A stretch of DNA of 64,000 nt. It comes from Minisyncoccota bacterium (GTDB lineage Bacteria > Patescibacteriota > Minisyncoccia > Phycocordibacterales > UBA1006). Positions 638 through 58,713 of the stretch are shown in pieces; positions within the stretch are counted from its first letter, which is position 1; the number at the start of each line of letters is the position of its first letter. Under the pieces are notes generated by a model. That model was given only the letters and a program-made list of their open reading frames with translations, was not told the DNA's origin and did no database searches. The stretch lies in the NCBI GenBank assembly GCA_036405175.1, contig DASWYC010000002.1, forward strand, positions 123,429 through 187,428, given 5' to 3'. The position numbers and the translations under genes were made by a program.

Positions 638-3166
638 ATGGCAACGCCGTTTAATCCCAATAAGATCTCAATCTTCGCCAAAACTAACTTTCGAGGAGAA
701 TCACGCCCTATTGGTATTAAGGCTATTGATCGTCTCCGTCACATGTATATCATCGGAAAATCAGGAGTAGGAAAATCTACCTTGATTGATAACATGGTGG
801 CTCAGGATATTATCAACGGTGACGGAATCGCTCTCCTTGATCCGCATGGGAGTTCGGCGGAAAAATCAATCAAATATGTTCCTGAACATCGTATTCAAGA
901 TGTGGTGTACTTTAATCCGGACGATGTTAATCATCCATTGGCATTTAATTTGATTGAAGACGTTCACCCAGATAAGCGTTCAAAAGTTGCAAACGGACTT
1001 CTTTCAATGTTGAAGAAAATTTGGCCTGATTCATTCTCGGCACGTATGGAGTATCTGACGATGAACATGTTGTTGCTCCTTTTGGAAAATCCTGGATCAA
1101 CTATTTTAGGTATTAACCGTGCATTCGCAGATAAAGAATTTTTGAACACACTCATTGCAAACATTAAAAGTCCGTCACTTCGTTCGGTATGGGTTGATGA
1201 GATTTTGAAGTACGATGAAAAGTTTTATCGTGAGGCAACCGCGCCGATTCAAAACAAAGTAGGACAGTTTATTTCTGATCCGATCATTCGTAATATTGTT
1301 GGGCAACCAAAATCATCATTTGATTTTAGTGGTATCATGAACAATCAGAAAATCTTCATTGCAAACCTTTCAAAAGGAAAGATTGATGAACAGAATGCGC
1401 GTTTGTTGGGAGGAATGCTGGTGACCAAAATTTATTTGGCAGCAATGGGGCGTGCAGATATTGCAGAAGAAGAACAGGCTAAATTGCCGCCATTCTATTT
1501 ATATGTAGATGAGTTTCAGAACTTTGCATCAGAATCATATGCAGACATTCTATCTGAGGCCCGTAAATACAAGTTGGGACTTACGATGGCACACCAGTAC
1601 GTTGCACAGCTTCCTGAGCCAGTGCGTGATGCGGTGTTTGGAAACGTGGGAACCATGGTGACATTTTTGACGGGAAACTTGGATGCAGAACTCTTTGAAA
1701 AGGAATTTTCTCCTATTTTCACTAAAGAAGATTTTACCAGCCTTGGATTTGCACAAATCTATTTGAAATTATTAATTGACGGAATTGCATCAGCGCCATT
1801 TTCTGGTCAGACTATTGCGCCATGGCCATATCCGGAGAATAAGTTTGTTCAGGAGGTACTAGAAAGTTCGCGCACCTTGTATGGACGTGACCGTACAGTG
1901 TTGGAGCAAGAAATTGCTGATTGGTTTAAGCCAATGCCAAATAAAAAAGATGCTGAGCATGAACGCTATATTCTTGAACGTCGTCTTGAGATTGAACAGC
2001 GTGGCGGTGTCTGGCGAGACAAAGAAACCGGACAAGCCATGCCAAAATTAAGTGAAGAAGAAATTGATGCGTATGAAAAAAAGCTCACTGATATTTTAGG
2101 TGGTGAGGTAACATTTAATCGTGAAAAATCTGCTGTGAGTGCCGTGCCTGCAGGAGATCCTCAAGCTAGTCAACAATCAGGATCTGCAACAACAGGATTG
2201 AGTGCATCAGCTATTGCGATTGCTCATCATTTGATTCCCAAAAAACAATCTGTTGAACCAGTGATTTCTGCACCCACTACCACTTCAGTACAGTCTCAAA
2301 CTGTAACAACTCAAACACAGCGCGTGACACATCAATATGTGGCGCCAATCGCTCAAAAAGTAGAAAAGCCTCCGCAACCCCAACGCCCTCAAGCGCATGA
2401 ACAGAAGCGTGAGAATATTCAACAAAATTCAGTAGCACCACAGAAACAGCATCAAAATAATTATCAGCAAAAACCTCAACCGCAAGTGCAGCAAAAACCA
2501 GCTCAACGAGATGAAGATCTGGTGGTAGATTTGCCTCCTAAAAAAGAACGAGTAAATGTTTCAAATGATCTTAAAAACTTATTATCCTCGATTTCAGATG
2601 ATCAGAATGATGATGTGGTATTCTCAGACATTGATACATCATTTGATGTGAAGCGGTCGTTTGCTAAACCTAAAGAACAAAAGATGACGAGCGTTCATAC
2701 TGAAAAAGAAGAAGGATCACATCGCAAGTTACAGGATATTTTGCATGAAAAAACGCCAGAAGAGGATGAGGGAATTAGTCTTTCTGATTTGTTGAATAAA
2801 TCAATCATGCATAGCGTGCAGAATAACACTAATAAAGCTCATGCGCGTGAAGCATTAAAGACCGATAAGGAATCTCTTTCTGCTACCTTGGCGCGTTTGG
2901 GTGTTCAGAAGAAGACTGCTGAAGAAAAAGTTGAGAATAAAAATTCAGACAGCGTTAGTATGGTTGAGAGTGTTGCAAAAGAAGAACCGGCGATGGCAGA
3001 GGTTCCGATGTCTCAAGTTGTTCGCGAAGAAAAGCCAGCTTCAAATGTGTCACATGCGAATAATGCCAAAAGCGAATATTATAAACAGTCTGAACCAGTA
3101 GTAGGATCACAGCCAGTTCCACGATATGTGCCAGATGACTTATTAAAAGCCATGCTGGAAGAATAG
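638..3166 (+). CDS. conjugative coupling-protein-like (TraG/VirD4/HerA-FtsK type) P-loop ATPase with ~330-aa Q/P/S-rich low-complexity C-terminal tail
   Basis: Walker A IIGKSGVGKST at residues ~39-49, ALLDPHG, Walker B-like FYLYVDEFQNF, LTMAHQY. No N-terminal TM. The C-terminal third is a Q/P-rich repetitive tract (QPQVQQKPAQ...). Confidence 0.5.
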   Translation: MATPFNPNKISIFAKTNFRGESRPIGIKAIDRLRHMYIIGKSGVGKSTLIDNMVAQDIINGDGIALLDPHGSSAEKSIKYVPEHRIQDVVYFNPDDVNHPLAFNLIEDVHPDKRSKVANGLLSMLKKIWPDSFSARMEYLTMNMLLLLLENPGSTILGINRAFADKEFLNTLIANIKSPSLRSVWVDEILKYDEKFYREATAPIQNKVGQFISDPIIRNIVGQPKSSFDFSGIMNNQKIFIANLSKGKIDEQNARLLGGMLVTKIYLAAMGRADIAEEEQAKLPPFYLYVDEFQNFASESYADILSEARKYKLGLTMAHQYVAQLPEPVRDAVFGNVGTMVTFLTGNLDAELFEKEFSPIFTKEDFTSLGFAQIYLKLLIDGIASAPFSGQTIAPWPYPENKFVQEVLESSRTLYGRDRTVLEQEIADWFKPMPNKKDAEHERYILERRLEIEQRGGVWRDKETGQAMPKLSEEEIDAYEKKLTDILGGEVTFNREKSAVSAVPAGDPQASQQSGSATTGLSASAIAIAHHLIPKKQSVEPVISAPTTTSVQSQTVTTQTQRVTHQYVAPIAQKVEKPPQPQRPQAHEQKRENIQQNSVAPQKQHQNNYQQKPQPQVQQKPAQRDEDLVVDLPPKKERVNVSNDLKNLLSSISDDQNDDVVFSDIDTSFDVKRSFAKPKEQKMTSVHTEKEEGSHRKLQDILHEKTPEEDEGISLSDLLNKSIMHSVQNNTNKAHAREALKTDKESLSATLARLGVQKKTAEEKVENKNSDSVSMVESVAKEEPAMAEVPMSQVVREEKPASNVSHANNAKSEYYKQSEPVVGSQPVPRYVPDDLLKAMLEE

Positions 3167-3209: not shown

Positions 3210-3325
3210 CTGAGCGGATACTAAAAGCACTCGCGGAAGCTGCCATCAAGAAGTGCGCAGCACGACTATGATGGACAGCTGAGCGTAGGGCCGATAGAGC
3301 CCGGGTGTTTTTAGTATCCGCTCAG
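3210..3325 (+). repeat. GC-rich hairpin-closed intergenic element, copy A (17-bp perfect closing helix ctgagcggatactaaaa/ttttagtatccgctcag)
   Basis: Conserved core ...cgactatgatggacagctgagcgtagggccgatagagcccgg... shared with copies at 18672-18790, 28694-28800, 42100-42209 and (degenerate) 52955-53041. Local GC is much higher than the flanks. Confidence 0.6.
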
Positions 3326-9116: not shown

Positions 9117-12074
9117 ATGAAGCAGGAATTTGACCCGAAAGCGTTCGAGAAAAAATGGCAGGATTACTGGCAAGAAAACGGCACCTACTCAACCAATTTT
9201 GAATCATCAAAACCAAAGAAATATATTCTGGATATGTTTCCCTATCCATCAGGGGCAGGACTCCATGTAGGACATCCTCGTGGATATATTGGAACGGATG
9301 TGTACTCACGTTTCCAACGCATGAAAGGGTTTGAAGTGCTTCACCCTATGGGATTTGATGCGTTTGGTCTGCCGGCAGAAGAGTATGCACTCAAAATGAA
9401 AACAACACCGCAGCTTTCGGTGTCACAAAATATTCAACGATATAAACAGCAGCTTGAAATTATGGGAGTTGATTACGATTGGTCAAACATGGTCTCAACG
9501 ACTGATGAGCAATTCTATAAATGGACACAGTGGATCTTTTTGGAGTGTTACAAAAAAGGACTCGCATATGAATCAAATGAACCGATCAACTGGTGTCCAA
9601 GTTGTAAGACGGGTCTTGCTAATGAAGATTTAAATAGTGATGGAACCTGTGAGCGCTGTGGAACGTTGGTTGAAAAAAAACCACTCAGACAGTGGGTATT
9701 AAAAATTACTGACTACGCAGATAAATTATTGACTGGACTTGATACACTTCCATTATGGCCGGACTTTGTTAAAGAATCGCAGCGCAATTGGATTGGAAAA
9801 AGTGAAGGAAGTGAATTTGTATTTAAATTAGTTGACGCAAACGGTAACGGGCTCGAAGAATCACTTACCGTATTTACTACACGTGCAGATACGTTGTTTG
9901 GGGTGACGTATGTGGTTGTTGCACCAGAACATGCATTGGTGACGAATAGTGCGATTGTAAATAAGCACGAAGTACTTGGCTATCAAGAATCTGCATTTAA
10001 GAAAAATGAAATTGAGCGTTCAAATCAAACTCTTGAAAAAACTGGCGTGAAAGTCGACGGTGTATTTGCCGTGCATCCTGCAACGGGTGAGCATATTCCG
10101 GTATATGTTGCTGATTATGTAATTGGATCATATGGAACGGGAGCCGTGATGGGTGTTCCTGCGCATGATGAACGTGATTTTGCGTTTGCAAAAAAATATA
10201 ACATTCCTGTTAAAAAGGTAGTATTTATTGAAAATGGTGATCGTCGTGAGAATGAAGAATTTAGAAATGGAGGTTGTGGTGTTATTTTTGATCCTGCCAC
10301 ACAAAAATATGCAGTAGCTAAGTGGAATGATGACGGGCGAGTATTGTTGTTTGCTGGAGGCGTTGATGATGGAGAAGATGTACACGATGGAGTATTAAGA
10401 GAAGTAAAAGAAGAAAGTGGTCTGTATGATATTAAGCACTTTGAATGGGTTGATACGGCTTACGCTCACTACTTTAATAAAGCGAAAAATGTAAATCGTG
10501 TTGCACGTGCTGAGTGCTATTTGGCTATTCTTAATTCTGCCGATGCGCAAGAAGTTCATCGGGAGCCTCATGAGAATTTTGAGTTAGTATGGATGAGTGC
10601 CCAAGAAATCTTAAATCATTGGATTGAAAAAAATGATTCAGGCTTACATCACTACATTCATTTCTTTAAGCAGGCGGTTGCTCGAGCTATTGAACTTGGT
10701 CATGATGCCGTGTCCTCTTCAAAAGTTTTTGCGGCAAACGCATTTTGTGATGATGGAATAGTTGAATTAGAATCAGGCGTAAATGGAATTACGTCTGAAG
10801 AAGCTCGCATAAAAATTACCGAACAATTTGGAAAGAAAGTTGTTAATTATAAAATTCGTGATTGGACATTTTCTCGTCAGCGTTATTGGGGTGAACCAAT
10901 TCCTCTTGTGTTTGACGCTAATCATAAAGCATATCCACTTCATATGAGTGAGCTTCCAGTAACACTTCCGAACGTTGAATTTTACGAGCCAACAGGAACC
11001 GGAGAATCGCCACTTGCGAACATTTCTGAATGGATGAATGTTGAAGGATATGTAGCCGAAGATGGGTCTGTGAAAACCATTAAAGAAGGAGAGTCTGCAC
11101 CCACAGGTGTAGCGGTTCAAAAGTTTACACGTGAATCAAACACCATGCCAGGATGGGCAGGTTCATCGTGGTATTACATCCGCTATATTGATATGAATAA
11201 TGACAATGAATTTATCAGCAAAGAGCGCGAACAAAAATGGTTGCCGGTTGATATGTATGTTGGTGGTGTTGAGCACGCAACACGTCACCTTATCTATGCA
11301 CGCTTTTGGCATAAAGTACTCTTTGATCTTGGATTTGTTCACACCGAAGAACCATTTACCGTTTTGAAAAACCAAGGACTCATTATGGCAAGCGATGGTC
11401 GCAAGATGAGTAAGCGTTGGGCGAATGTGGTAAATCCGGATGACGTAATTGCAATGTTCGGAGCTGATGCGTTCCGCATGTTTGAGCTCTTTATTGCACC
11501 ATTTGATCAAACAACACCGTGGCAAGATGATGGCGTAGTGGGAACCCGCCGATTCCTTGAACGTGTGCACAAATTAATGATTGCTGATCATAAAGAAGGG
11601 GAAGAGTCTGCAGAAGTGCTTAAAGCGCTCCATAAATCAATTAAGAAACTCACCGACGGTATTGAAAATTTTGCATTCAACACGTGCGTTTCTGATTTGA
11701 TGATTACCTTGAAGGTGCTTGAAAAACAGGAAGATGGGGTAACTGTTGAGGCTAAAAAAATCTTTGCACAGTTGTTGGCACCAATGGCACCACATGCAAC
11801 CGAAGAATGGTGGCGTATGTTGGGTGAAGAAACATCAATTCACAATAGTGCATGGCCTCAGTATGATGAGAAGTATCTTGTTGATGATGAAATGACTATT
11901 GCAGTCCAGATTAACGGAAAAGTTCGTGCGACCGTAGTCATTGCTGCTGATGCAGATGAAGCTGCGGTGCGTGAATTAGTATATGCACAAGAAGCGGTTC
12001 AAAAATATACTACAGGGGTTGAGATTAAGAAGGAAATGTATATTCCAGGAAAGATTTATACGATTGTAATCTAA
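9117..12074 (+). CDS. leuS: leucyl-tRNA synthetase carrying an inserted Nudix hydrolase domain
   Basis: PYPSGAGLHVGHPRGY (HIGH), TTRADTLFGVTY, GTGAVMGVPAHDERDF, RQRYWGEPIP, KMSKR (KMSKS). At 985 aa it is ~130 aa longer than typical. The extra segment contains Nudix box GGVDDGEDVHDGVLREVKEESGL. Confidence 0.9.
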   Translation: MKQEFDPKAFEKKWQDYWQENGTYSTNFESSKPKKYILDMFPYPSGAGLHVGHPRGYIGTDVYSRFQRMKGFEVLHPMGFDAFGLPAEEYALKMKTTPQLSVSQNIQRYKQQLEIMGVDYDWSNMVSTTDEQFYKWTQWIFLECYKKGLAYESNEPINWCPSCKTGLANEDLNSDGTCERCGTLVEKKPLRQWVLKITDYADKLLTGLDTLPLWPDFVKESQRNWIGKSEGSEFVFKLVDANGNGLEESLTVFTTRADTLFGVTYVVVAPEHALVTNSAIVNKHEVLGYQESAFKKNEIERSNQTLEKTGVKVDGVFAVHPATGEHIPVYVADYVIGSYGTGAVMGVPAHDERDFAFAKKYNIPVKKVVFIENGDRRENEEFRNGGCGVIFDPATQKYAVAKWNDDGRVLLFAGGVDDGEDVHDGVLREVKEESGLYDIKHFEWVDTAYAHYFNKAKNVNRVARAECYLAILNSADAQEVHREPHENFELVWMSAQEILNHWIEKNDSGLHHYIHFFKQAVARAIELGHDAVSSSKVFAANAFCDDGIVELESGVNGITSEEARIKITEQFGKKVVNYKIRDWTFSRQRYWGEPIPLVFDANHKAYPLHMSELPVTLPNVEFYEPTGTGESPLANISEWMNVEGYVAEDGSVKTIKEGESAPTGVAVQKFTRESNTMPGWAGSSWYYIRYIDMNNDNEFISKEREQKWLPVDMYVGGVEHATRHLIYARFWHKVLFDLGFVHTEEPFTVLKNQGLIMASDGRKMSKRWANVVNPDDVIAMFGADAFRMFELFIAPFDQTTPWQDDGVVGTRRFLERVHKLMIADHKEGEESAEVLKALHKSIKKLTDGIENFAFNTCVSDLMITLKVLEKQEDGVTVEAKKIFAQLLAPMAPHATEEWWRMLGEETSIHNSAWPQYDEKYLVDDEMTIAVQINGKVRATVVIAADADEAAVRELVYAQEAVQKYTTGVEIKKEMYIPGKIYTIVI

Positions 12075-18655: not shown

Positions 18656-18671
18656 AAAATAGTTAACAGCA

Positions 18672-18790
18672 ATCCATAATCGCAGCGGCCTCTATCGGGC
18701 CTACGCTCAGCTGTCCATCATAGTCGCGCCAAAGCATTGCAACGGCGCTTCCTACCAGCGGTTTCCGCGACTGCTTGCATGGTATTGATG
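18672..18790 (-). repeat. GC-rich intergenic element, copy B (inverted orientation, closing helix degraded)
   Basis: ggcctctatcgggcctacgctcagctgtccatcatagtcg is the reverse complement of the copy-A core. ...ccagcggtttccgcgactgc matches the RC of copy A cgcggaagctgcc.... Confidence 0.5.
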
Positions 18791-18916
18791 GGGAACTTTT
18801 AAAATTCATTTCTAAAATCAAGCTCGCTGTGCGCATAGTATGATGCATATATAATTCACAAACGAATAGTTTGAGTACGCTATACTTATTATATGAATCG
18901 ACTCTCTACATTTAAG

Positions 18917-20284: not shown

Positions 20285-23200
20285 ATGTATATAACTATTA
20301 TGAATCCTGATGAACTCAAGGCTCAGCTGGAGCAGATTGAAAAAAAGAAAAAACGTAATGCAATGTTGATTGCCTTGGGATTTGCAGTGCTTGGCATCAT
20401 TGTTATTTTTGGAATTTATAGTGCGTTTGTGCGCAATGTAAATCGTGAACGAACCGAAAGTACGCAATACTCTCTTTTTGAGCGTATTTTTGGTGGTAAG
20501 AAAAATCCTCAAGTAGTAGATGAAGCAGCTCAGACAGAAGGAGAAACAAAACAGGTTGAGAATAAAAATAATGGAACATTCGGAGTAAAGTTCACCTCAC
20601 TTGCAGAAAAGTGGTTTCCAAGTTATGCAAAGGGTGTTAAAGAAAACTCAACAAACATTGTTCGCCCATTGAGTGTCTCATCAAATATCTTTGAAGACCC
20701 TGAATATATAAAAAAATATGGAAAAGTGAATAAAGATGAGGCAACGTTGGAAGACATGGCGCGTGCTATGGAATTTGCATCAGAGCGCGGCTCTGAAATT
20801 ACGGATCAAATTGGCAGCCTTGAAAAACAAGTAAGTGAATATAATCGTGAATTTGATGATGAAAAGCAAGAGCTTGATGCATTAAAAGCGCAGCTTGCAA
20901 ACTTAGAAGCACTTGAAGCCCAGGCTACTCAAAATGGTGATCCGGTTGATCTATCTCGCGTACGACGCCGTGCACAAATAGAATCTATTAAACAGCAAAT
21001 TTCTGGACTTGAGCAAAATGTTACCACACATCAGCAAATTTCTGGTGCAATGACCAAGCAGATTGGATCACTTAATACGCAATACAACGGAATTACTCAA
21101 CAAGTCGCAAACTACAACAGTAGCATTACCGGTCTTGAGCAGCAAATTGGAGGATTTTATTCTGAATATACCAAGCTTGATCCTCAGGTAAAACAATATT
21201 TGAATCAATTAAAGAATTTTGATCTTCAAATTCTTAAAACTGACCCAATGTTGAGCAAATTGTCACCACAGTTTTTGGAATTTTTTGTACAAATTAGTTC
21301 GCTCAGAAATCAGTTAACAGAAACATTTGATTCGCAGATTAAAGATCTGTATGCACAAATTAAGTTTTTGAAACTTCAGGTAACATCATTTACGAGTCAG
21401 AAAGTAGTACCAATCGTATCTCAACTTGATGTTCCTATTTTTAAAACCAAGTATCAAATTGGAGCTACCGCAAATGGCATTCCTGCAACAGAAGTCTATC
21501 TAGTAACTGCAATGAATAGTCTTAAAGGCTATTGGGATGGAATTGGAACGGTTAAGCCACAAGTAACAGGAGTTCTCTTCCAGCTTGATGCTAACAAAGA
21601 TGGCAAGTTATCATCAGTTGATTTTGATGGTCTTGGATTTACTCAAGAACAAGTTTTGTCACTTCAAAATCAAATTGATTACGATAAGCTTGAGGGTATT
21701 CCGTGGGCGACCTATGTTGAAGCGTATGATGTTGATCGTGACGGGATTGTTGAGCTATCTGAAATTAAAAAGGTTCTCAGTACTAATGCTGGTAATGCAC
21801 TTCAAAAACTTAATCTTACCCAACAGCTTGATCTCAACAAGGATGGGAAAGTTACCCCCGACGAGCTTCAAAATCAAATTGTATATATTGAAAATCAAGG
21901 AATTTCATGGGAGAAGTTCTTGGCGGCATATGATCTGAATAAAGACGGTTTTGTTACTACTAAAGAAATGAAGACTGCGCTTGAGAATAATACCGATAAT
22001 ATTCTTCAACGACTTAACCTTGCGCTTCAGCTTGATACTAATAAAGATGGAAGAGTATCTCTTATTGATTTTAAGAGTCAGATTGTTTATTTGGAAAATT
22101 CAGGACTTAAGTGGTCAGACTTTTTGGCGGCATATGATAGCAACGCAGATCGTCAGATTACCGTAGAAGAAATGAAGTATGCCATGGAAACTAATTATGG
22201 AAATGTGCTTAAGCAGCTCAATCTTACATCTCAACTTGATGTAAATAAAGATGGCATTGTTACTCAGAATGAATTTTTCCAGCAACTTGATGCCAACAAA
22301 GATGGTTTTGTGACCAAGGCTGACTTTGATGGATTTAGTAGTGGTATGATGATCGCAGAATTTGATGGAAGTATCACTGGTGTGCGTGATGGATTTGCAA
22401 CACTTGATGAAATTAGGTATGCACTCAGTAAAAATCAAAATAGCGTATTCTATCGCTTTAAGCTTAAGAATCAACTCGACCTTGATGGTGATAATATTGT
22501 AAAGCGTCCATATCTTAATATTTTTGGTGATTATGTAGTTGATTCTCGTGAAATGTTGAATGTTGCCGATATTAACGGTGACGGCATCTTTGAGCGCTGT
22601 AGATTTAAGGATATGTACGGTAACTGTATTCCAGAAGGATTTTTGCAGTTGGATGTTGATGGTAATCTTATCCCTGATGTATATCTGCAGGGCGATACTG
22701 ATGGTGATGGAAAAATTAATCCATGCTATTACACCGATACAGGAAAGCAATGTTTTGCAGAAGGATACAGCCCTAATGATTACAATTTCTTTGGTAATCC
22801 AGACTATTTCTTCCAGCTTGATACCAATGGTGACAATATTTACAACGAAAAAGATGCATTTGACCCATACACCTTTGTATTTAGAAAAACTGCAACGGTT
22901 CCAATATATATCAACGAAGAGGATTCATGGCGCGATGAAGAAAGTGGGCAAGCGCAAGTTGCCTTAATGGTAGACTTTACTCCAGGAAAGACGCTCATAC
23001 AAAATATGACGCTTACCATGGTGAAGTATAAGATTGATAAGACCGGAAAGCCGTACGATGTTAGCGGCTTTGGAGGAGGAACATGTACGCTCAGCCGTAC
23101 CAAGACAACTGTGCAAAAGAATGAAAAAGATCTTGGATTCTGCTATCTCCAAGGAGGAAATGTTTCTCCGGATGATTACTTTGATGTACTTGCAACATTG

Positions 23201-24829
23201 TATGGGCCAACATCAATTACTCAGCCAAACATTCTGCAGGGAATTCTTAATCAATTTACTCAAGCTCAAGCCAAGCCAATCATTACCTACGGCTACACAA
23301 CGGTTACCGTTATGAGTAGAAATTCATTCTCATCAATTGATCAGCCGGCAAGTAAATGGTATTACCTTACAAGCACCAATCCGCGCACCCCGAGTACGTA
23401 CTATGCTCAACGACAAATCTGTTTAAATGAGGCACGAGCATACGCAACTAGTACTGGTAAAACTGGCCAGCCGCCATGTTATCGAGAAATCTTTTCTCGC
23501 GCAACGTATTACTTCTTTACCGAGGTAGATCCTCAAATAGTAAAGAGTCCAGATTATCCTGATCTTAAGACGTGTACGGCAGAGGCACAAAAAGCAAAAC
23601 AAGCTGCTAAACAGGCCATGGAGGCAGAAATTAAGAAGCGTAACGATGAGTTGCGAAAACAAGGTAAACCTGCCAATGTTGGACCATCGTATGATCCTCG
23701 TTCATTTAGTTGTATTAATAGTGACAATAAATCACAGCTTCCAACGGTTGATGATGGGGAACCAACGTTCATTAACCAGATTGAAGGTCTTGTTGATCAG
23801 GATAAAACCTATCGCGGATTTACATTCTTTATTAAAACAAATCCAAAGCGCACCAACAAAGAGGCAACAATTGAGTTTGCGGCAACGAACTACATGCCAA
23901 GTGCATTGGCTTCAAAAGATGAGAATAAGGCATCAACCTATCCGGTAACGTTCTACTACTGGAAAGATGGAACTGCTAACAAGTTCACCATACCAATCAC
24001 CGCCAATGTTCAGCCATTAACGCCGGGTCAAACATTTTCAGGACTTTATGAAACCGTAAAGGTGACCGGAAATCCTGGAGAAACAATTAACTTTGAATTT
24101 ACCGAAATGGTGCCCGATGAAAGTACGTCTGATCCGGTTGACCTTAAAGAGGTAAGTGTCAGTGGTGTTCGATCAGTAACGCTGATGACCGATAAAGAAT
24201 TTGAAGCTTCGAAAGATTATAAGAAGAGTCCAGTAAACCAAAGTATGTACCAGGAGGTGAGCGCAGCATCGCCCACCTTTTCTGGTTTTGGTATCTTGAA
24301 GCAGGGGATTATTTTTTGTGGATACGATGGATATTGGCCAACATATGACGGAGCTAAAAAGAGATTCAATTACACATTGCCCGCGGCTTTTTTAGCTAAT
24401 CCAACTAAATATGGTATTGATCCTGCTAAAATAAAAGGCTTAGTTGAAGGTGAGGGTGCGAGCGCAAAAGCTGTTACATATTTTGACGGCAAACCTCAAA
24501 TGGTGACGGTGTTTAATAAACAAGTTGATGAGAATGAGCTCTGCTCATGGCCACATGTGATTGCCTCGTTCAATCGTATTGTGAATATTATCTTGAAGGT
24601 GTTTATGCCGCTTGCAATTGGGATCTTAATCATGGTGATCGGTGTTCGCTATTTGATTGCAGCATATAAGGGTGCTCCGGTTAAATTAGTTGAGAATAAA
24701 AAGGCATTATGGCGCATTGTTATTGGGACCTTGATTATTCTCAGCTCGTTTGTGATTGTTCGATTGATTGTGACTACGCTCAATCAACAAGAATGGTTTG
24801 GTCAGTTTGTTGACGTAACAGGGAAATAG
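20285..24829 (+). CDS. giant (1514 aa) membrane-anchored surface protein with coiled coils, ~10 EF-hand-like Ca-binding repeats, a Cys-rich domain and a C-terminal two-helix membrane domain
   Basis: N-terminal TM LIALGFAVLGIIVIFGIYSAF. Heptad-rich Q/E region. Repeated QLDxNKDGxVTxxE loops (DLNKDGKVTPDE, DTNKDGRVSLID, DVNKDGIVTQNE, DANKDGFVTKAD...). DTDGDGKINP. Many Cys. C-terminus FMPLAIGILIMVIGVRYLIAAY...ALWRIVIGTLIILSSFVIV. Confidence 0.5.
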   Translation: MYITIMNPDELKAQLEQIEKKKKRNAMLIALGFAVLGIIVIFGIYSAFVRNVNRERTESTQYSLFERIFGGKKNPQVVDEAAQTEGETKQVENKNNGTFGVKFTSLAEKWFPSYAKGVKENSTNIVRPLSVSSNIFEDPEYIKKYGKVNKDEATLEDMARAMEFASERGSEITDQIGSLEKQVSEYNREFDDEKQELDALKAQLANLEALEAQATQNGDPVDLSRVRRRAQIESIKQQISGLEQNVTTHQQISGAMTKQIGSLNTQYNGITQQVANYNSSITGLEQQIGGFYSEYTKLDPQVKQYLNQLKNFDLQILKTDPMLSKLSPQFLEFFVQISSLRNQLTETFDSQIKDLYAQIKFLKLQVTSFTSQKVVPIVSQLDVPIFKTKYQIGATANGIPATEVYLVTAMNSLKGYWDGIGTVKPQVTGVLFQLDANKDGKLSSVDFDGLGFTQEQVLSLQNQIDYDKLEGIPWATYVEAYDVDRDGIVELSEIKKVLSTNAGNALQKLNLTQQLDLNKDGKVTPDELQNQIVYIENQGISWEKFLAAYDLNKDGFVTTKEMKTALENNTDNILQRLNLALQLDTNKDGRVSLIDFKSQIVYLENSGLKWSDFLAAYDSNADRQITVEEMKYAMETNYGNVLKQLNLTSQLDVNKDGIVTQNEFFQQLDANKDGFVTKADFDGFSSGMMIAEFDGSITGVRDGFATLDEIRYALSKNQNSVFYRFKLKNQLDLDGDNIVKRPYLNIFGDYVVDSREMLNVADINGDGIFERCRFKDMYGNCIPEGFLQLDVDGNLIPDVYLQGDTDGDGKINPCYYTDTGKQCFAEGYSPNDYNFFGNPDYFFQLDTNGDNIYNEKDAFDPYTFVFRKTATVPIYINEEDSWRDEESGQAQVALMVDFTPGKTLIQNMTLTMVKYKIDKTGKPYDVSGFGGGTCTLSRTKTTVQKNEKDLGFCYLQGGNVSPDDYFDVLATLYGPTSITQPNILQGILNQFTQAQAKPIITYGYTTVTVMSRNSFSSIDQPASKWYYLTSTNPRTPSTYYAQRQICLNEARAYATSTGKTGQPPCYREIFSRATYYFFTEVDPQIVKSPDYPDLKTCTAEAQKAKQAAKQAMEAEIKKRNDELRKQGKPANVGPSYDPRSFSCINSDNKSQLPTVDDGEPTFINQIEGLVDQDKTYRGFTFFIKTNPKRTNKEATIEFAATNYMPSALASKDENKASTYPVTFYYWKDGTANKFTIPITANVQPLTPGQTFSGLYETVKVTGNPGETINFEFTEMVPDESTSDPVDLKEVSVSGVRSVTLMTDKEFEASKDYKKSPVNQSMYQEVSAASPTFSGFGILKQGIIFCGYDGYWPTYDGAKKRFNYTLPAAFLANPTKYGIDPAKIKGLVEGEGASAKAVTYFDGKPQMVTVFNKQVDENELCSWPHVIASFNRIVNIILKVFMPLAIGILIMVIGVRYLIAAYKGAPVKLVENKKALWRIVIGTLIILSSFVIVRLIVTTLNQQEWFGQFVDVTGK

Positions 24830-28594: not shown

Positions 28595-28693
28595 AAATCG
28601 CAAAGAAAATCGCCACACGGCGATTTTCTTTTGCCCAATAGTATCCTAAGTTTGGCATACGAATGTGATTAAGAGATAGATGATACACAATAC

Positions 28694-28800
28694 AAGACCC
28701 TCAAAGCAGTCGCGCAGACTATTATTAAGGAGCACGGGCTTTGGGTGCGACTATAATAATAGTCGAGCGTTAGCCCTTGAGGCGCTGCTTTGAGGGTCTT
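28694..28800 (+). repeat. GC-rich hairpin-closed intergenic element, copy C (16-bp closing helix aagaccctcaaagcag/ctgctttgagggtctt, nested inner repeat gactattatta/taataatagtc)
   Basis: Interior ...gcacgggctttgggtgcgactataataatagtcgagcgttagccc... is homologous to copy D (ggctttgaggtgcga) and copy A (cgactatgatgg...gagcgtagggcc). Confidence 0.6.
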
Positions 28801-28862
28801 TTATGTGATGTGGTCTCTTCACCCCATCTTCATTATGCTATACTTATACTATCTCACGTTAT

Positions 28863-35884: not shown

Positions 35885-36026
35885 AGTGGTATAAGTATAG
35901 CATTGGAAGCACATGCGCAATCTTGAACACTTTCACAAAAAGATTGGTTATTTTTTAGCTGAATTTTGTAGTACATTTTTATACCATAAGAAGATGAAAG
36001 AGTTTAAGATGTGGAGTAGGGTAAAA

Positions 36027-36380
36027 ATGAGCATTAACGAATACAATCATATTCGCCGTGTTCATGAGCGGGATATATGGTGGTGCTCCATGGGTGTAAA
36101 TGTGGGTGATGAGCTCGATGGAAAAGGGCAAGAATTTGGACGTCCCGTCTTGGTGATGAAGCAGCTGAGCGCCAGAATGGTTTTGATTGTGCCGCTTACT
36201 TCTAGTCAGAGTGAACACAAATATCGTCTTGATGTTGGCTATGTTAAGAGAGAAAGGTCAAAAATAATTTTATCTCAGATCAGAGTTGTTGATACTCGAA
36301 GATTTATGGAGCGAATCACTATACTCGATAAGAAGACATTTGGCGCAATACAAAAAGCAGCTAGAGAATTGCTTTTCTAA
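36027..36380 (+). CDS. MazF/PemK-like (CcdB/MazF fold) putative endoribonuclease toxin, orphan
   Basis: ERDIWWCSMGVNVGDELDGKGQEFGRPVLVMKQ...IVPLTSS...SQIRVVDTRRF follows the PemK/MazF pattern. Good RBS ggagtagggtaaaa before ATG 36027. No adjacent antitoxin ORF. Confidence 0.45.
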   Translation: MSINEYNHIRRVHERDIWWCSMGVNVGDELDGKGQEFGRPVLVMKQLSARMVLIVPLTSSQSEHKYRLDVGYVKRERSKIILSQIRVVDTRRFMERITILDKKTFGAIQKAARELLF

Positions 36381-39974: not shown

Positions 39975-39980
39975 TTAAAA

Positions 39981-40018
39981 AATGCCTTGCAAACTTTTAT
40001 ATTTGTAAGGCATTTTTG
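39981..40018. terminator. bidirectional terminator (aatgccttgcaaa/tttgtaaggcatt, 13-bp stem flanked by A- and T-runs)
   Basis: Lies between the plus-strand small ORF and the minus-strand tRNA-Leu 3' end. Confidence 0.6.
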
Positions 40019-41140: not shown

Positions 41141-42061
41141 TTATTTTGTAAATGATCTAAATAAATCTTCAAGCGCACGCACACCATCACCGGCAGCAAT
41201 GTTATTTTGATGATAGAGAACATTAGTGCAATCACCAGCTGCCCAAATGCGATCATGAGATGTTTTTCCGGTCCAAGGATCAATCACAATAGAATTGTAT
41301 TCAGAAATTGCTACAAGGTTTTGAATCAGATGAATATTCGGAATTTGTCCGATCTCAGAAAAAATAGCTGAACAGGGAATGGTTTGTGCTTCTTCGGTGA
41401 TAGAATTTTTTACCGTAATCGATTCAAGTGCATCTTCACCATTAATTGAGGTCGGTTGTGTATTGATAAGAAGAGTAAATTTAGGATCACTCATAACTTT
41501 TTGCACGGTTGTTTCATCAGCCTTTGGCGTACTGCGTGCAATCAAGGTAACTTTTGGACAGTATTGAAGAAGTTCAAATGCGGCTTCAAAACCAGCATTA
41601 CCACCGCCAACCACTACCACTTCTTTACCAGCAAAGAGCGGTCCATCGCATGATGCGCAATACATAATGCTGGTGTTATCAAACTTTTCAATCCCATCCA
41701 CCTCCATTTTTTTGTGTGATGAGCCTGCGGCATACAGAATATTTTTTGCAGTTACGGTTTCGTTGTTTGAAAGGGTGATAGTAAAAGATTCTCCGGTATC
41801 TTCAATAGATGTTGCGCGAAAGTATTCAGAAATCACCGCCTTCTCAAGTTGATTTGCTTTGGCATGTTGTTTGAGTTTTTCTGCAAGATCAAGACCGGAA
41901 ATATGAGGTTCTCCAATCCAGTTTTGAATATCAGTTGAAACCGATGACTGTCCGCCAAACGTTTCGGTAATTAAAATAGTTGAAAGTCCTTTGCGAGAGG
42001 CATACACAAATGCCGCAACGCCGGCTGGTCCGCCGCCAATTATTGCTACGTCGTAAATCAT
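41141..42061 (-). CDS. trxB: thioredoxin-disulfide reductase
   Basis: Two Rossmann motifs (YDVAIIGGGPAG, VVVVGGGNAGFE) and redox-active CASCDG. Confidence 0.85.
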   Translation of the reverse strand: MIYDVAIIGGGPAGVAAFVYASRKGLSTILITETFGGQSSVSTDIQNWIGEPHISGLDLAEKLKQHAKANQLEKAVISEYFRATSIEDTGESFTITLSNNETVTAKNILYAAGSSHKKMEVDGIEKFDNTSIMYCASCDGPLFAGKEVVVVGGGNAGFEAAFELLQYCPKVTLIARSTPKADETTVQKVMSDPKFTLLINTQPTSINGEDALESITVKNSITEEAQTIPCSAIFSEIGQIPNIHLIQNLVAISEYNSIVIDPWTGKTSHDRIWAAGDCTNVLYHQNNIAAGDGVRALEDLFRSFTK

Positions 42062-42099
42062 ACCAGTAGTATATCGTACCGATAGAAAGACCACAAAAA

Positions 42100-42209
42100 C
42101 CTCTGTAAAAAGCAGCGGGTCTATCGCCCTAGTCTCGACGATCCAATATATTCGCACCTCAAAGCCTGGCGCTCATTATTGGTCGTCTGCGAACTGCTTT
42201 TTACAGAGG
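42100..42209 (-). repeat. GC-rich hairpin-closed intergenic element, copy D (16-bp closing helix cctctgtaaaaagcag/ctgctttttacagagg with T-runs on both strands)
   Basis: RC interior ...gccaggctttgaggtgcgaatatattggatcgtcgagactagggcgatagacccg is homologous to copies A and C. Lies between the ftsZ 3' end and the trxB start. Confidence 0.6.
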
Positions 42210-42261
42210 TTTTTGTACCATCTTAATCTAGACGATAGCTACTCGTATGGGATTTTCTAGA

Positions 42262-42287
42262 GAAAATAAAAACACCTTTAGGTGTTT
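42262..42287 (-). terminator. intrinsic terminator just downstream of ftsZ stop (aacacc-ttta-ggtgtt then T-run on minus strand)
   Basis: Hairpin plus tttttattttctc on the minus strand. Confidence 0.6.
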
Positions 42288-43523
42288 TTATTCGTTATTA
42301 AATGGTTTTCTGCGGAGAAGTGGGGGAAGTTTGCCGCCAAATCGTGAAGCACTGTTTTGCGTATTGCCAAATGAGGGTTCTTCAACAACAATTTCTGTTA
42401 CATCATGTTTAGCTGAGCGCTGAGCAGGTTGTTCTTCATCAAATTTAGGTTGATCAACTTGGATAGTAGTCTGTTGTTGAGGTGTATGCTTGGGTTCTTC
42501 TTTTTTGAGTGGTGTATGCAAGTGCTCCTTTGCAGAATGTGCTGGTTTTTGCGCATCAAATCCTGCAGCTATAATCGTTACTTTAACTTCACCTTCCTTA
42601 AGCTCCTTGAGATTATCTGGTGAGTGCATGATTTGTCCATAAATTACACGAGCATTTGGATCAATTGATTCGGTAATGATCTGAGAGATCTTGTTGAGTT
42701 CAGTCATGCGGAAGTCCTGGCCAGAAGTAATACAGTAAAGAACATTTTTAGCTCCCGAGATAGACATATTAAGAAGCGGCGTGCTGATTGCTTTGCGAGC
42801 AGCTTCTTCTGCGCGGTGTTCTCCATGCGCAAATCCAATTCCAATGAATGCTGATCCGGCACCGGTAAGAATAGCCTGGAAATCACGGAAGTCAGTGTTG
42901 ATTTTTCCTGGGGTAATAATAATGTTTGAAATTCCTTCAACCGTTTGACGCAAAATTTCATCACAGAGTTCAAATGCGTCATTAAGAGTTTTTTCTTCAT
43001 CAATAACTTCAAGAATTTGATCGTTAGGAATCACAATAATCGCATCAACTTCTTTGCGGAGATCTTCAACTCCTTTATCCGCAATGCTATTACGCTGTTT
43101 TCCTTCAAAATTAAATGGCTTGGTAACTACAGCGACCGTTAAAACACCCTGATCGCGTGCTTCACGAGCAATAACCGGTGATGCACCCGTTCCGGTTCCT
43201 CCTCCCATACCGCAGGCAATAAATACCATATCGGCACCTTTAAGTACTTCCTGGATTTCTGAGCGAGTTTCTTCTGCGGCTTCACGTCCAATATCGGGAT
43301 TCATTCCTGATCCTTTTCCACTCGTAAGATTGCGTCCCAAGTGAATCTTGGTATTTGCAAGAGACTTATGAAGATCCTGCGAGTCGGTATTCATTCCAAT
43401 AAATTCAACACCTTCAACCCCCATTCTGATCATGTGGTTAATGGCGTTAAGTCCTGATCCTCCAATGCCGATTACTTTAATATTGGCGGTCGTTTGCGGT
43501 TCTCGTTCGATTGGTCGTGGCAT
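42288..43523 (-). CDS. ftsZ: cell division protein FtsZ
   Basis: [13 protein letters not shown] and [15 protein letters not shown] tubulin signatures. Disordered C-terminal linker. Confidence 0.9.
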
Positions 43524-44790: not shown

Positions 44791-44852
44791 GGAAATAAGT
44801 ATATCACGAGACGATTTGACATAGGTGAAAGTTGGGGTAGAAAAGTGACAGA

Positions 44853-44878
44853 TAAAAACACCCTCAGGGTGTTTTTAT
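44853..44878. terminator. bidirectional terminator (aaaaacaccc-tca-gggtgttttt)
   Basis: Near-palindromic hairpin with A/T runs on both sides, between ybeY 3' end and ftsA start. Nearly identical in sequence to the hairpin at 42262-42287. Confidence 0.6.
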
Positions 44879-45270
44879 CTGTCGATCATTGGCAGATATT
44901 TTTTATAATATTTCCGCTCTTCGGTTTCCATTTTGCTGCCATGGGTAAATCCTTTTAAATGCAAACATCCATGGATCAAAATAAATAACAAGTGTTCATG
45001 AAACGTGCGGTCATACGACGCAGCTTTTGCGCGGATTGAGGGAAGATGCAAAATAATTTCTCCTGAATCTTTTTCAAACGGAAAACTCAAAATATCAGCA
45101 GGGCCATCTTTGTGTTTAAATTGCTGATGAAGTTTTTCTGATTGTGGTGCTCGCACACACACAACAGACAGTGCATATTTTTTACCCAAAATATCATTTT
45201 TAACAGCAAATAACGGAAGCGTTGGGAACGTTCCGTTATGCATGAGCTCTACCGTAAGGGTATGATCCAT
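44875..45270 (-). CDS. ybeY: rRNA maturation endoribonuclease YbeY
   Basis: Zn-binding motif HGCLHLKGFTHG (HxxxHxxGxxH). Confidence 0.8.
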   Translation of the reverse strand: MDHTLTVELMHNGTFPTLPLFAVKNDILGKKYALSVVCVRAPQSEKLHQQFKHKDGPADILSFPFEKDSGEIILHLPSIRAKAASYDRTFHEHLLFILIHGCLHLKGFTHGSKMETEERKYYKKYLPMIDR

Positions 45271-48984: not shown

Positions 48985-48993
48985 CAAAGGAAA

Positions 48994-49027
48994 AGCCGGA
49001 ATCTTATTGATAAGATTCCGGCTCTTT
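48994..49027. terminator. bidirectional terminator (agccggaatctta-ttga-taagattccggct)
   Basis: 13-bp perfect stem between convergent genes. Confidence 0.7.
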
Positions 49028-49840: not shown

Positions 49841-49850
49841 CGGTATAATA

Positions 49851-49877
49851 AAAACACTTCACCGAAGTGTTTTTATT
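49851..49877 (+). terminator. intrinsic terminator (aaaacacttc-acc-gaagtgtttt)
   Basis: Hairpin plus T-run after the rpmE stop. Confidence 0.65.
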
Positions 49878-52831: not shown

Positions 52832-52869
52832 TTATGAGAAAATAAAAGCTAAACATTTGTTTAGCTTCG

Positions 52870-52943
52870 TGGACAGGAAGGGAATCGAACCCTCAACCGT
52901 ATCATTGCAAATGATATGCTCCAGCCAATTGAGCTACCCGCCC
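52870..52943 (-). tRNA. tRNA-Cys (anticodon GCA); CCA not encoded
   Basis: Acceptor GGGCGGG/CCTGTCC, D-arm GCTCAATTGGCTGGAGC, anticodon stem ATCAT/ATGAT with loop TTGCAAT, T-loop TTCGATT. Confidence 0.8.
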
Positions 52944-52954
52944 GTTCGTAAAAG

Positions 52955-53041
52955 GAAGCAATTTAAAGAGGGATCGGACCTCTCTGCTTAGACTGTGTAT
53001 ACTAGCCCAAGCATGACGCATTTTCGCGCCTCAAATTGCTC
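52955..53041 (-). repeat. degenerate fifth copy (E) of the GC-rich hairpin-closed element (closing helix agcaattt..gagg/cctc..aaattgct)
   Basis: RC interior ...gcttgggctagtatacacagtctaagcagagaggtccgatccctc resembles copy A ...cgactatgatggacagctgagcgtagggccgatagagccc. Retains a hairpin with a CCGAT-containing loop. Confidence 0.3.
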
Positions 53042-53263
53042 TATATTGTGTTGATAAAGTAGAATTTAGGTATTCAATATAACCTTTCTTCAAATAAAGT
53101 CAAGTGTTGAGTCTAAAATCCCAAAATACCAGTATAGGTTGCAATGAGAGAAATAATAATGAGTACTGCAATGATTCCAAAAGCAATACTAATTTTTTTC
53201 TTGTGTTTTGGGTGGAAAATAGAGCTCATAAATGTAGTACAATTGTACTATAAACCCTCGCGT

Positions 53264-54512: not shown

Positions 54513-54526
54513 CAAAACTTCAAAAA

Positions 54527-54560
54527 TTAAAACACGCCCAATTAAGTGCGTGTTTTAATT
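54527..54560 (+). terminator. intrinsic terminator after tRNA-Phe (aaacacgc...gcgtgttt then T-run)
   Basis: 8-bp stem with T-rich tail. Confidence 0.55.
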
Positions 54561-54623
54561 TTATTTAAAATACCTTAATCCGAAGACTAAGGTATTGAGA
54601 TTAACAAGTGACAACATTAAGAG

Positions 54624-58627: not shown

Positions 58628-58713
58628 ATCTTGTCATAATACAAGAAAAATGGCGGTTTTTCAATAAATAAAAGAGGTGTTCGAGAATTAATTCTCGAAC
58701 ACCTCTTGGGACA

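Follow-up and report, generated by a model that had tools for sequence, protein, structure and literature searches.

A structured intergenic repeat family with locus-specific closing helices in a Paceibacteria genome

A 64,000-nucleotide stretch of a Minisyncoccota bacterium (GenBank assembly GCA_036405175.1, contig DASWYC010000002.1, positions 123,429 to 187,428; hereafter the window) contains four copies, A to D, of a short, non-coding element located in intergenic spacers. The host is a Paceibacteria metagenome-assembled genome. The element is 107-124 nt long and occurs four times in the 80 kb made up of the window and 16 kb of extensions. It consists of a core of 81-93 nt, which folds into a three-way junction, and of flanking arms that pair to close it. 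The cores have a GC content of 51-62% against ~39% for the window, and are thus GC-rich elements in an AT-rich genome, as the first-pass annotation of this DNA had described them. Our leading account, which we hold tentatively and at a little under an even chance, is that the core is a module selected to fold as a single strand, likely as RNA, and that its closing helix arose by template switching during replication and is not a transposon end.

A profile built from the copies returned exactly four matches in the window with nhmmer (E = 1e-17 to 2e-21). The covariance-model scan that the first-pass annotation had proposed, run with two models and with filters off, recovered the same four copies at 73-88 bits (A 88, B 81-86, C 82-86 and D 73-81), and the rest of the window scored below 13 bits. 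No extra copy was found in the 16 kb beyond the window. Thus, four of the five copies originally listed are real and lie essentially where they had been placed, whereas the fifth, E (52955-53041, minus strand), read at first as a degenerate member, had no match with nhmmer or the two covariance models at a cut-off as loose as E<=10. In the region 52955-53110 (minus strand), this fifth sequence is a separate structured segment of ~90 nt (fold z-score -4.9), flanked by a promoter-like TTGACT-17-TATATT site and the gene for tRNA-Ala (52869-52943); it is probably a tRNA precursor leader. The gagg/cctc example of covariation and the fourth helix sequence quoted in the first-pass annotation come from E and so fall outside the family. 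It is scarcely credible that the remaining copies are a chance similarity or an assembly artefact. The sequence is metagenome-assembled and one sister-species contig breaks inside an element, but the loci are 100% identical in contigs from independent Logan assemblies of at least nine sequencing runs, the orthologs come from different projects, and E-values reach down to 1e-21.

For comparison we used three relatives: a sister species, G1 (~81% nucleotide identity), and the more distant G2 (~75%) and G3 (~72%). Orthologs of the copies in G1 are denoted A' to D', and a diverged copy in G3 is denoted X. The consensus fold of the core is a three-way junction of P2, a long bulged hairpin (P3) and a small hairpin (P4), and includes a terminal 4-bp helix and a 3-bp CGC/GCG stem. 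P3 comprises 17 pairs, interrupted by two conserved single-base bulges and a tandem G/A (GA/GA) internal loop, and ends in an apical loop of 3-21 nt; P4 carries the loop C-GNUA-G-A in most copies. Minimum free energy z-scores are -8 to -10 for A, C and D, with the fold of copy A reaching -70 kcal/mol (z = -10). Pairing was counted over 27 pairs in seven copies and compared with 500 shuffles and with controls in which the partners were slid by 1-3 columns. Standard pairs fill 94% of cells against 81% in shuffles, and 14 of the 27 pairs are changed on both sides, against 8.1 +/- 1.4 after shuffling; none of the 500 shuffles reached 14, and the slid-partner controls gave at most 5 pairs with double changes. 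This bears out the earlier observation of a homologous interior with a covarying long inner hairpin and small apical hairpin. The sense strand folds more stably than the antisense strand in all eight copies, a comparison we set aside because homologous copies are not independent.

Paralogous cores are ~60% identical, differing at ~40% of positions with the loops included. A, A' and B form one subfamily, in which A and A' are each nearer to B (77%) than to each other (66%). The fold of copy B is unexceptional (z = -0.3) and its inner hairpin is partly broken. The broken hairpin is explained by its chimeric composition: the left half and P3 arm of B resemble A' (73%), the right half resembles A (85%), and 27 consecutive identical bases are common to the right halves of A and B, which suggests that copies have exchanged sequence. 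An alternative pairing is available at 28773-28797 in copy C, where the small-hairpin region (GCCCTTGAGGC) can pair with the right arm; the hairpin so formed is smaller, terminator-like and followed by CTTTTAT. It could represent a competing conformation, and the sister species has conserved this segment.

G1 carries the element at all four orthologous sites, and the orthologous cores at B, C and D are far better preserved (97-100% identical) than the surrounding neutral sites. Over six flanking genes, protein identity between G1 and the window is 77-98% and identity at four-fold degenerate sites is 61% (41-80% per gene). C' (contig L021, 3651-3727) is identical to C at 75 of 77 aligned positions, with a 6-nt deletion in the apical loop, and the two substitutions are the two sides of a single P3 pair, T-A changed to G-C. 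D' (L028, 11327-11411) is identical to D at 83 of 86 positions, and B' to B over 50 of 50 nt (24 of the core and 26 of the flank), where the contig ends. Set against the highest local neutral identity, this conservation has P = 4e-10 for D, 7e-6 for C and 2e-11 for B, and the three cores are conserved about as well as codon positions one and two in the neighbouring genes. At the sequence level this is strong evidence that cores B, C and D are under purifying selection and have a function, which argues against decaying selfish DNA. A' (L024, 3875-3958), flanked by the same two genes as A and by recognisably orthologous arms, has the opposite orientation. Its identity to A is 66-70%, the surrounding DNA evolves fast (four-fold identity 41-58%), and conservation is not significant for A. 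The G1 contig that ends 24 nt into B' (L031, 13250-13299) fits an assembly-graph break at a repeat, and suggests that more copies exist in the G1 genome.

The two more distant relatives lack the element at the sites compared. There is none in 21 kb of G2, where the ftsZ-trxB spacer occupied here by copy D is 11 nt long against ~225 nt in the window, and in G3 neither the A site (a gap of 61 nt) nor the C site (158 nt) contains an element. Filled and empty D sites differ by the whole ~215-nt spacer and not by a clean element-sized insertion. X in G3, beside an inverted dnaE, is insignificant under the covariance model (12.8 bits, E = 0.7); we accept it as a diverged member because it aligns globally to D (z = 5.3) and has an imperfect closing helix of 18 bp. 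From these comparisons the family appears confined to a small clade, gained or lost site by site and since then inherited vertically. The dnaE gene of G3 (L027, 15506-19576) is inverted relative to the window and G1, and X lies in the adjoining 870-nt non-coding region; the inversion breakpoint in G3 may lie at the element.

The closing helices behave differently from the core. The first-pass annotation had each intact copy closed by a perfect helix, and this is so for A (17 bp, or 23 bp with a GCAC/GUGU extension), C (12 bp plus GCAG/CUGC, 16 in all) and D (19 bp plus 4), but B has only an interrupted 4+5+4 bp pairing between 18664-18681 and 18775-18792. It had also taken the helix sequences to differ completely between copies. 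That is right for A against the rest and overstated for C against D, which, like X, have arms of the same A-tract/CCTC...GAGG/T-tract type. Between paralogs the arms show no significant similarity, and comparisons of left with left and right with right flanks are no better than shuffles; only GCAG/CTGC and a short A/T run are common to the copy ends. The perfect parts of the helices are purely Watson-Crick, without a single G-U pair, and wobbles and mismatches occur only farther out (G-U against A-C in the decayed outer arms, 7 versus 2 as read by eye, is too small a count for use). Between orthologs, changes in 49 closing-helix pairs affect both arms in 15 cases and one arm in 7. At A/A', 7 of 18 pairs are changed on both arms, including three transversion swaps, against 1 single change, and both helices are perfect; the corresponding double and single changes are 3 and 2 for C/C', and 5 and 4 for D/D'. 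Thus, the closing helices of orthologs turn over at about the neutral rate yet stay paired.

At C and D the palindromy continues into the outer flanks, about 50 nt beyond the arms (Table 1). The right flank of D is native: it includes the -10 box, the ATG and the first trxB codons, whose product has an N-terminus homologous to that of G2. The right flank of C is nearly identical in the sister species. The left flanks are decayed inverted copies of the right ones. Read as its reverse complement, the D left flank ACGATAGCTACTCGTATGGGATTT aligns with the right flank ACGATATACTACTGGTATGATTT, so that the -10 box and the start codon have been copied in inverted form. The 50-nt flank palindromy is stronger at C' than at C (z = 4.7; p <= 0.003 at C, C' and D), and none was detected at 13 ordinary stand-alone palindromes in the window, nor at A, A' or B. 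An apparent homology between the outer flanks of C and D (a GTGGTCTYTTC motif) was not significant and was discarded. Locus-specific Watson-Crick arms that continue for ~50 nt as inverted copies of the promoter region point to a DNA-level origin. The first-pass annotation had treated conserved pairing as the mark of a structured RNA. This stands for the inner helices among paralogs and for the compensated closing helix between orthologs, whereas the differences among paralogous closing helices are not simple covariation of one ancestral helix, and it is not safe to take them as proof of RNA-level covariation.

We propose that the closing helix is local DNA turned into an inverted repeat by fold-back copying, nucleated by the self-pairing core. 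During replication, the newly made strand would fold onto the core and use its own flank as the template, and repeated switching would re-perfect the arms. Template switching of this kind predicts arms that are Watson-Crick, locus-specific, turning over about neutrally while remaining paired and fading outward, together with flipping of the core; the palindromy, perfect at the self-pairing core and decaying outward, is as repeated fold-back would give. The inversion between A and A' would follow, since inverted repeats allow the DNA that they enclose to flip.

All copies lie between co-directional genes, five in sense and two (A' and B) in antisense orientation to their neighbours; copy B is antisense to the flanking dnaE and solute-binding-protein gene. 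Every element is 20-60 nt upstream of the -10 box of the next gene and downstream of the previous stop codon or terminator. About 13 of 46 gene starts in the window have a (GC)TATACT -10-like box 12-20 nt before the ATG, and rplY, rplU and dnaB have TATACTTRYACCACT-ATG in common; these boxes suggest near-leaderless mRNAs and a conserved promoter/start module. A terminator-like stem followed by a U-run is present in D (A5...T5), C, C' and X and missing from A, A' and B. The idea of a structured terminator therefore fits C and D and fails at A, A' and B; the description of D as having T-runs on both sides agrees with its symmetric A-run and T-run, which make it terminator-like in both directions. 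C and D each have, besides, a good separate terminator 50-60 nt upstream, following rplY and ftsZ respectively (Table 1). In G1, a 169-aa NUDIX gene (L021, 3052-3561) lies between rplY and C', where the window (28595-28700) has the terminator hairpin instead. The ordinary intergenic terminators of the window are unusually long perfect palindromes, with arms of 14-18 bp and loops of 0-10 nt, one of them a 36-bp perfect palindrome, and several have ATAAAAACAC...GTGTTTTTAT in common. They may reflect the same palindrome-perfecting tendency of the genome.

Such terminators raise the alternative that the family is a MITE (a miniature transposable element with inverted repeats) that inserted into the AT-rich apex of pre-existing terminator palindromes, with the closing helices being the old terminator stems. 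In its favour, the element is short and non-coding and occurs in several intergenic copies, the arms of C and D look like the genome's terminators in being long perfect palindromes with A/T tracts, and the orthologous sites are empty in G2 and G3. The opposite orientations of A and A', each nearer to B than to the other, could reflect independent insertions into the same palindrome. TA adjoins the A-run and T-run ends in A, A', D and C', but it is absent in B, C and D', and since a palindrome forces TA on both sides, its presence there is uninformative. No direct repeat that could be a target-site duplication was found outside the arms, and no conserved terminal repeat beyond the GCAG/CTGC ends and short A/T run, which counts against a simple MITE, as the first-pass annotation had argued from the changed helix sequences. 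A search of ~80 kb of this genome and ~100 kb of relatives found no transposase, integrase or RAYT gene, and a parent insertion sequence was not found in the ~180 kb of window, extensions and relatives. The strong purifying selection on cores B, C and D is unexpected for a dead MITE, a separate terminator is already present upstream at C and D, and the flank palindromy extends ~50 nt beyond any terminator stem. The empty D site in G2 is an 11-nt gap, so there was no pre-existing hairpin to receive an insertion. We consider this explanation quite improbable.

A second alternative is that the copies are independent small-RNA genes, trans-acting or scaffolding a protein, each with its own promoter in the left flank and terminated by the closing helix and a U-run. 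Conserved junctions and loops combined with a variable closing stem are the usual pattern of functional RNAs, free orientation relative to the neighbours fits independent genes, and D and C end in a hairpin and U-run. Some left flanks also contain -10-like boxes; for instance, GCTATCGT lies upstream of D, and the A' arm includes TATAAA. Scanning the surroundings of the copies with promoter and terminator consensus sequences was uninformative, however, with no promoter motif common to the left flanks, and A, A' and B have no U-run. A divergence of ~40% between paralogs, loops included, would be odd for one RNA function, and the P3 apical loop ranges from 3 to 21 nt. The probability that we assign to this reading is small.

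The element may instead act purely at the DNA level, as a single-stranded or cruciform DNA structure or a composite protein-binding site in which RNA plays no part. The recogniser might be a recombinase, an HUH-type transposase (IS200/IS605 or RAYT-like), or a nucleoid or regulatory protein at the upstream edge of promoters. In favour of this reading, the arms contain only Watson-Crick pairs and are symmetric between the strands. Orientation is conserved neither with respect to genes nor to replication: A and C are on the plus strand, B and D on the minus strand, A' is flipped, and the strand is uniformly G-skewed across the window, so that we found no link to the direction of replication. Bulges conserved within a hairpin are characteristic of the substrates of HUH transposases (PMC3333891), C and D are each placed after a terminator and shortly upstream of a promoter, and GTAG precedes the small hairpin in A and B (cf. 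PMC3733652). This tetranucleotide is not conserved, however (TTAG in C, CTAG in D and GCAG in A'), and the same ~180 kb contains no gene for a transposase, integrase or RAYT. Orthologs that are nearly identical beside strongly diverged paralogs are not what a common enzyme recognition site would predict, and double-stranded binding sites need no covarying helices. A purely DNA-level element is, in our judgement, unlikely, though less so than a MITE.

We therefore return to a selected, single-strand-folding core enclosed by template-switched arms. The locus-specific conservation, the conserved bulges and junctions and the compensatory changes all favour a single strand that folds and is under selection. 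Since copies are free in orientation, any common function must work either way round. We see two options: a very stable hairpin within read-through transcripts (an insulator, processing site or stabiliser; cf. PMC2229807), or a folded-DNA or protein-binding site upstream of promoters. Going by the sequence, the core most likely works at the RNA level, which is somewhat likelier than the DNA level; by analogy, such a role would resemble that of the ERIC, Correia and BOX repeats of other bacteria. The core would have spread in the common ancestor of the host species and its sister and would now be inherited vertically at gene boundaries. It would act in read-through or 3'-UTR (untranslated region) transcripts as a very stable hairpin, possibly protein-bound or processed by an RNase, insulating the neighbouring transcription units and, at C and D, also providing a back-up bidirectional terminator.

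Several observations weigh against this interpretation. The upstream terminators at C and D mean that transcription through the element may be low. A' and B run antisense to the genes on either side, which would be incompatible with an RNA role that depends on orientation, and because A, A' and B have no U-runs, termination cannot be the common function. Strict Watson-Crick arms and conserved bulges suit a single-stranded-DNA or protein-binding role equally well. The arms of D' are imperfect (13/16), so re-perfecting is not constant, and the signature of one arm rewritten from the other is not statistically demonstrable with two species; an asymmetry of arm divergence at D/D', considered as such a signature, was rejected for having too few sites. 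Finally, there are only 7-8 copies in all, among which orthologs are non-independent observations.

A bolder form of the same idea is that the core is a new structured nucleic acid specific to one Paceibacteria lineage, either an RNA (scaffolding a protein, signalling processing or regulating) or a single-stranded-DNA signal. Its ends would nucleate fold-back that copies the adjacent promoter region, inverted, time after time, and it would thereby build and renew its own closing helix and split operons. An example of such splitting would be ftsZ-trxB, where the short gap of G2 would have become the much longer spacer of the window, with terminator, element and promoter. We regard this form as somewhat unlikely.

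Searches for known relatives supported the suggestion that the family is novel. Against Rfam 15 at the gathering threshold, only the four tRNAs of the window were matched; at E<=10 copy A gave nothing, and C and D gave only generic miRNA-hairpin noise. Two degenerate DNA patterns, covering 3 of 4 and 4 of 5 of the copies known at their design, had no matches in GTDB (one genome per species) or in IMG/VR, and the first had four matches in JGI metagenomes, all due to chance on inspection. No match emerged when D was compared by blastn with phage records, or B with plasmid records. By eye, A and B contain hammerhead (CUGANGA/GAAA) and box C/D-like motifs, but C and D lack them, and these assignments were rejected. 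An integron attC site was likewise rejected: the ends are GCAG...CTGC and not R''/R' (RYYYAAC...GTTRRRY), the neighbours are housekeeping genes, and there is no integrase.

The closest likenesses are to known classes of bacterial repeat. ERIC/IRU sequences are 127-bp imperfect palindromes, transcribed as long stem-loops, with reported effects on mRNA stability and an unknown mode of spread (PMC2229807). Like them, the element is a ~100-nt, intergenic, non-coding, multi-copy long stem-loop found in either orientation at operon boundaries or 3' UTRs. There is no sequence similarity, however, and ERIC copies have common terminal sequences, TA ends and duplications, whereas in our element it is an internal three-way junction that is conserved, the outer helix being specific to each locus, and the host belongs to the candidate phyla. 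Correia/NEMIS repeats of Neisseria form long perfect double-stranded RNA, are RNase III substrates and may have promoter or terminator activity (PMC2229807). They are likewise short palindromic repeats adjoining genes, and our element would form such RNA if transcribed and may have similar activities, but the 24-26 bp conserved terminal repeats and TA target duplications of Correia were not found in it. REP/REPIN hairpins have conserved imperfections, show long vertical inheritance and are mobilised by RAYT, a Y1 HUH protein (PMC3116915, PMC3333891, PMC3733652). The element has a conserved-imperfection hairpin and, in A and B, GTAG beside a small GC-rich hairpin. It differs from REPINs in that GTAG is not conserved, the unit is not an inverted REP pair, the paralogs are far more diverged, and no RAYT occurs in the DNA examined.

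Organelle selfish hairpins, such as the sponge mitochondrial RHE and Volvox palindromes, are GC-rich and intergenic in compact AT-rich genomes (PMC2800124, PMC2670323), but those decay and vary between close relatives, whereas orthologs of our element are under strong purifying selection. Template switching creates, homogenises and extends inverted repeats and RNA hairpins, and yields compensatory change without stepwise selection (PMC8794818, PMC13100816, PMC7202029). The perfect Watson-Crick arms and outward-decaying flank palindromy of the element resemble such quasipalindromes. Template-switch hairpins are a mutational process and not an element family, whereas here they appear to have been nucleated repeatedly by a conserved, dispersed core. 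To our knowledge, repeated template-switch nucleation of this kind has not been described. The element is best filed as a previously uncatalogued structured intergenic repeat family of the ERIC/Correia/REPIN kind.

Table 1. Coordinates of the element copies, their arms and flanks, and associated signals in the window
Feature	Position	Strand	Remarks
Copy A, whole	3210-3325	+	
Copy A, core	3227-3307	+	nhmmer
Copy A, left arm	3210-3226	+	CTGAGCGGATACTAAAA; perfect complement of 3309-3325
Copy A, right arm	3308-3325	+	TTTTTAGTATCCGCTCAG; no T-run after
Copy B, whole	18682-18774	-	
Copy B, core	18682-18774	-	nhmmer
Copy C, whole	28694-28800	+	
Copy C, core	28706-28788	+	nhmmer
Copy C, left arm	28694-28705	+	AAGACCCTCAAA; perfect complement of 28789-28800
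Copy C, right arm	28789-28800	+	TTTGAGGGTCTT; then TTAT, terminator-like
Copy C, left outer flank	28644-28693	+	degenerate in-register inverted copy of 28801-28850; z = 3.0, p = 0.003
Copy C, right outer flank	28801-28850	+	-10-like boxes TATGCT/TATACT of next gene, start codon 28863
rplY terminator hairpin	28602-28631	+	separate, upstream of copy C, outside the element
Copy D, whole	42093-42216	-	
Copy D, core	42112-42197	-	nhmmer
Copy D, left arm (sense strand)	42198-42216	-	ACAAAAACCTCTGTAAAAA; 19 bp perfect with 42093-42111
Copy D, right arm	42093-42111	-	TTTTTACAGAGGTTTTTGT; symmetric A-run/T-run, bidirectional terminator-like hairpin
Copy D, left outer flank	42217-42266	-	decayed inverted copy of the trxB promoter/start; z = 3.5, p = 0.001
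Copy D, right outer flank	42043-42092	-	-10 box TATACT (42073-42068), trxB start codon 42061
ftsZ terminator hairpin	42265-42292	-	AATAAAAACACC-TAAA-GGTGTTTTTATT; separate, upstream of copy D
Gene starts with (GC)TATACT box, examples	27971, 32824, 35884, 36560, 15461, 18893, 42061, 44790		
Long-palindrome terminators	58672-58707, 44847-44883, 49847-49877, 54523-54562, 48991-49026, 39978-40017, 42265-42292		

Some neighbouring genes deserve mention. The gene at 638-3166 (plus strand) encodes an 842-aa orphan protein that had been labelled T4CP-like; its only match is a 50-residue P-loop similarity to TraD-type coupling proteins that lies far below the family cut-off, which makes the label a weak one. 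At 20285-24829 (plus strand) there is a 1514-aa orphan coiled-coil protein with EF-hand/XopAW-like calcium-binding repeats, which has a 1653-aa counterpart in G3. The leucine-tRNA ligase encoded at 9117-12074 (plus strand) contains an inserted NUDIX hydrolase domain, an architecture found in many Patescibacteria homologs. In G2, an RVT_1 gene (295 aa) followed by ~830 nt of non-coding sequence lies between a tRNA-ligase gene and dnaB (L009, 16185-17901), and may be a retron or a diversity-generating retroelement; the matching position in the window (~35994-36380) holds a PemK-type toxin gene.

Patescibacteria have tiny, poorly understood genomes, and almost nothing is known of their non-coding elements. 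The element described here is kept more strongly between species than the synonymous sites of adjacent essential genes, and stands at the boundaries of transcription units that apparently use near-leaderless promoters. Should it act as RNA, a new family awaits characterisation. If its arms were made by template switching, it would offer a natural case of hairpins, terminators and palindromic promoter surroundings arising and staying paired without stepwise selection, as well as a caution that perfect closing-helix covariation can be mutational rather than selective. Were our reading true, the unusual feature would be a core kept by selection inside inverted repeats that are made of local DNA and renew themselves. 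In the bolder and somewhat unlikely form, it would be a dispersed element that itself produces palindromes specific to each locus and divides former operons into separate transcription units.

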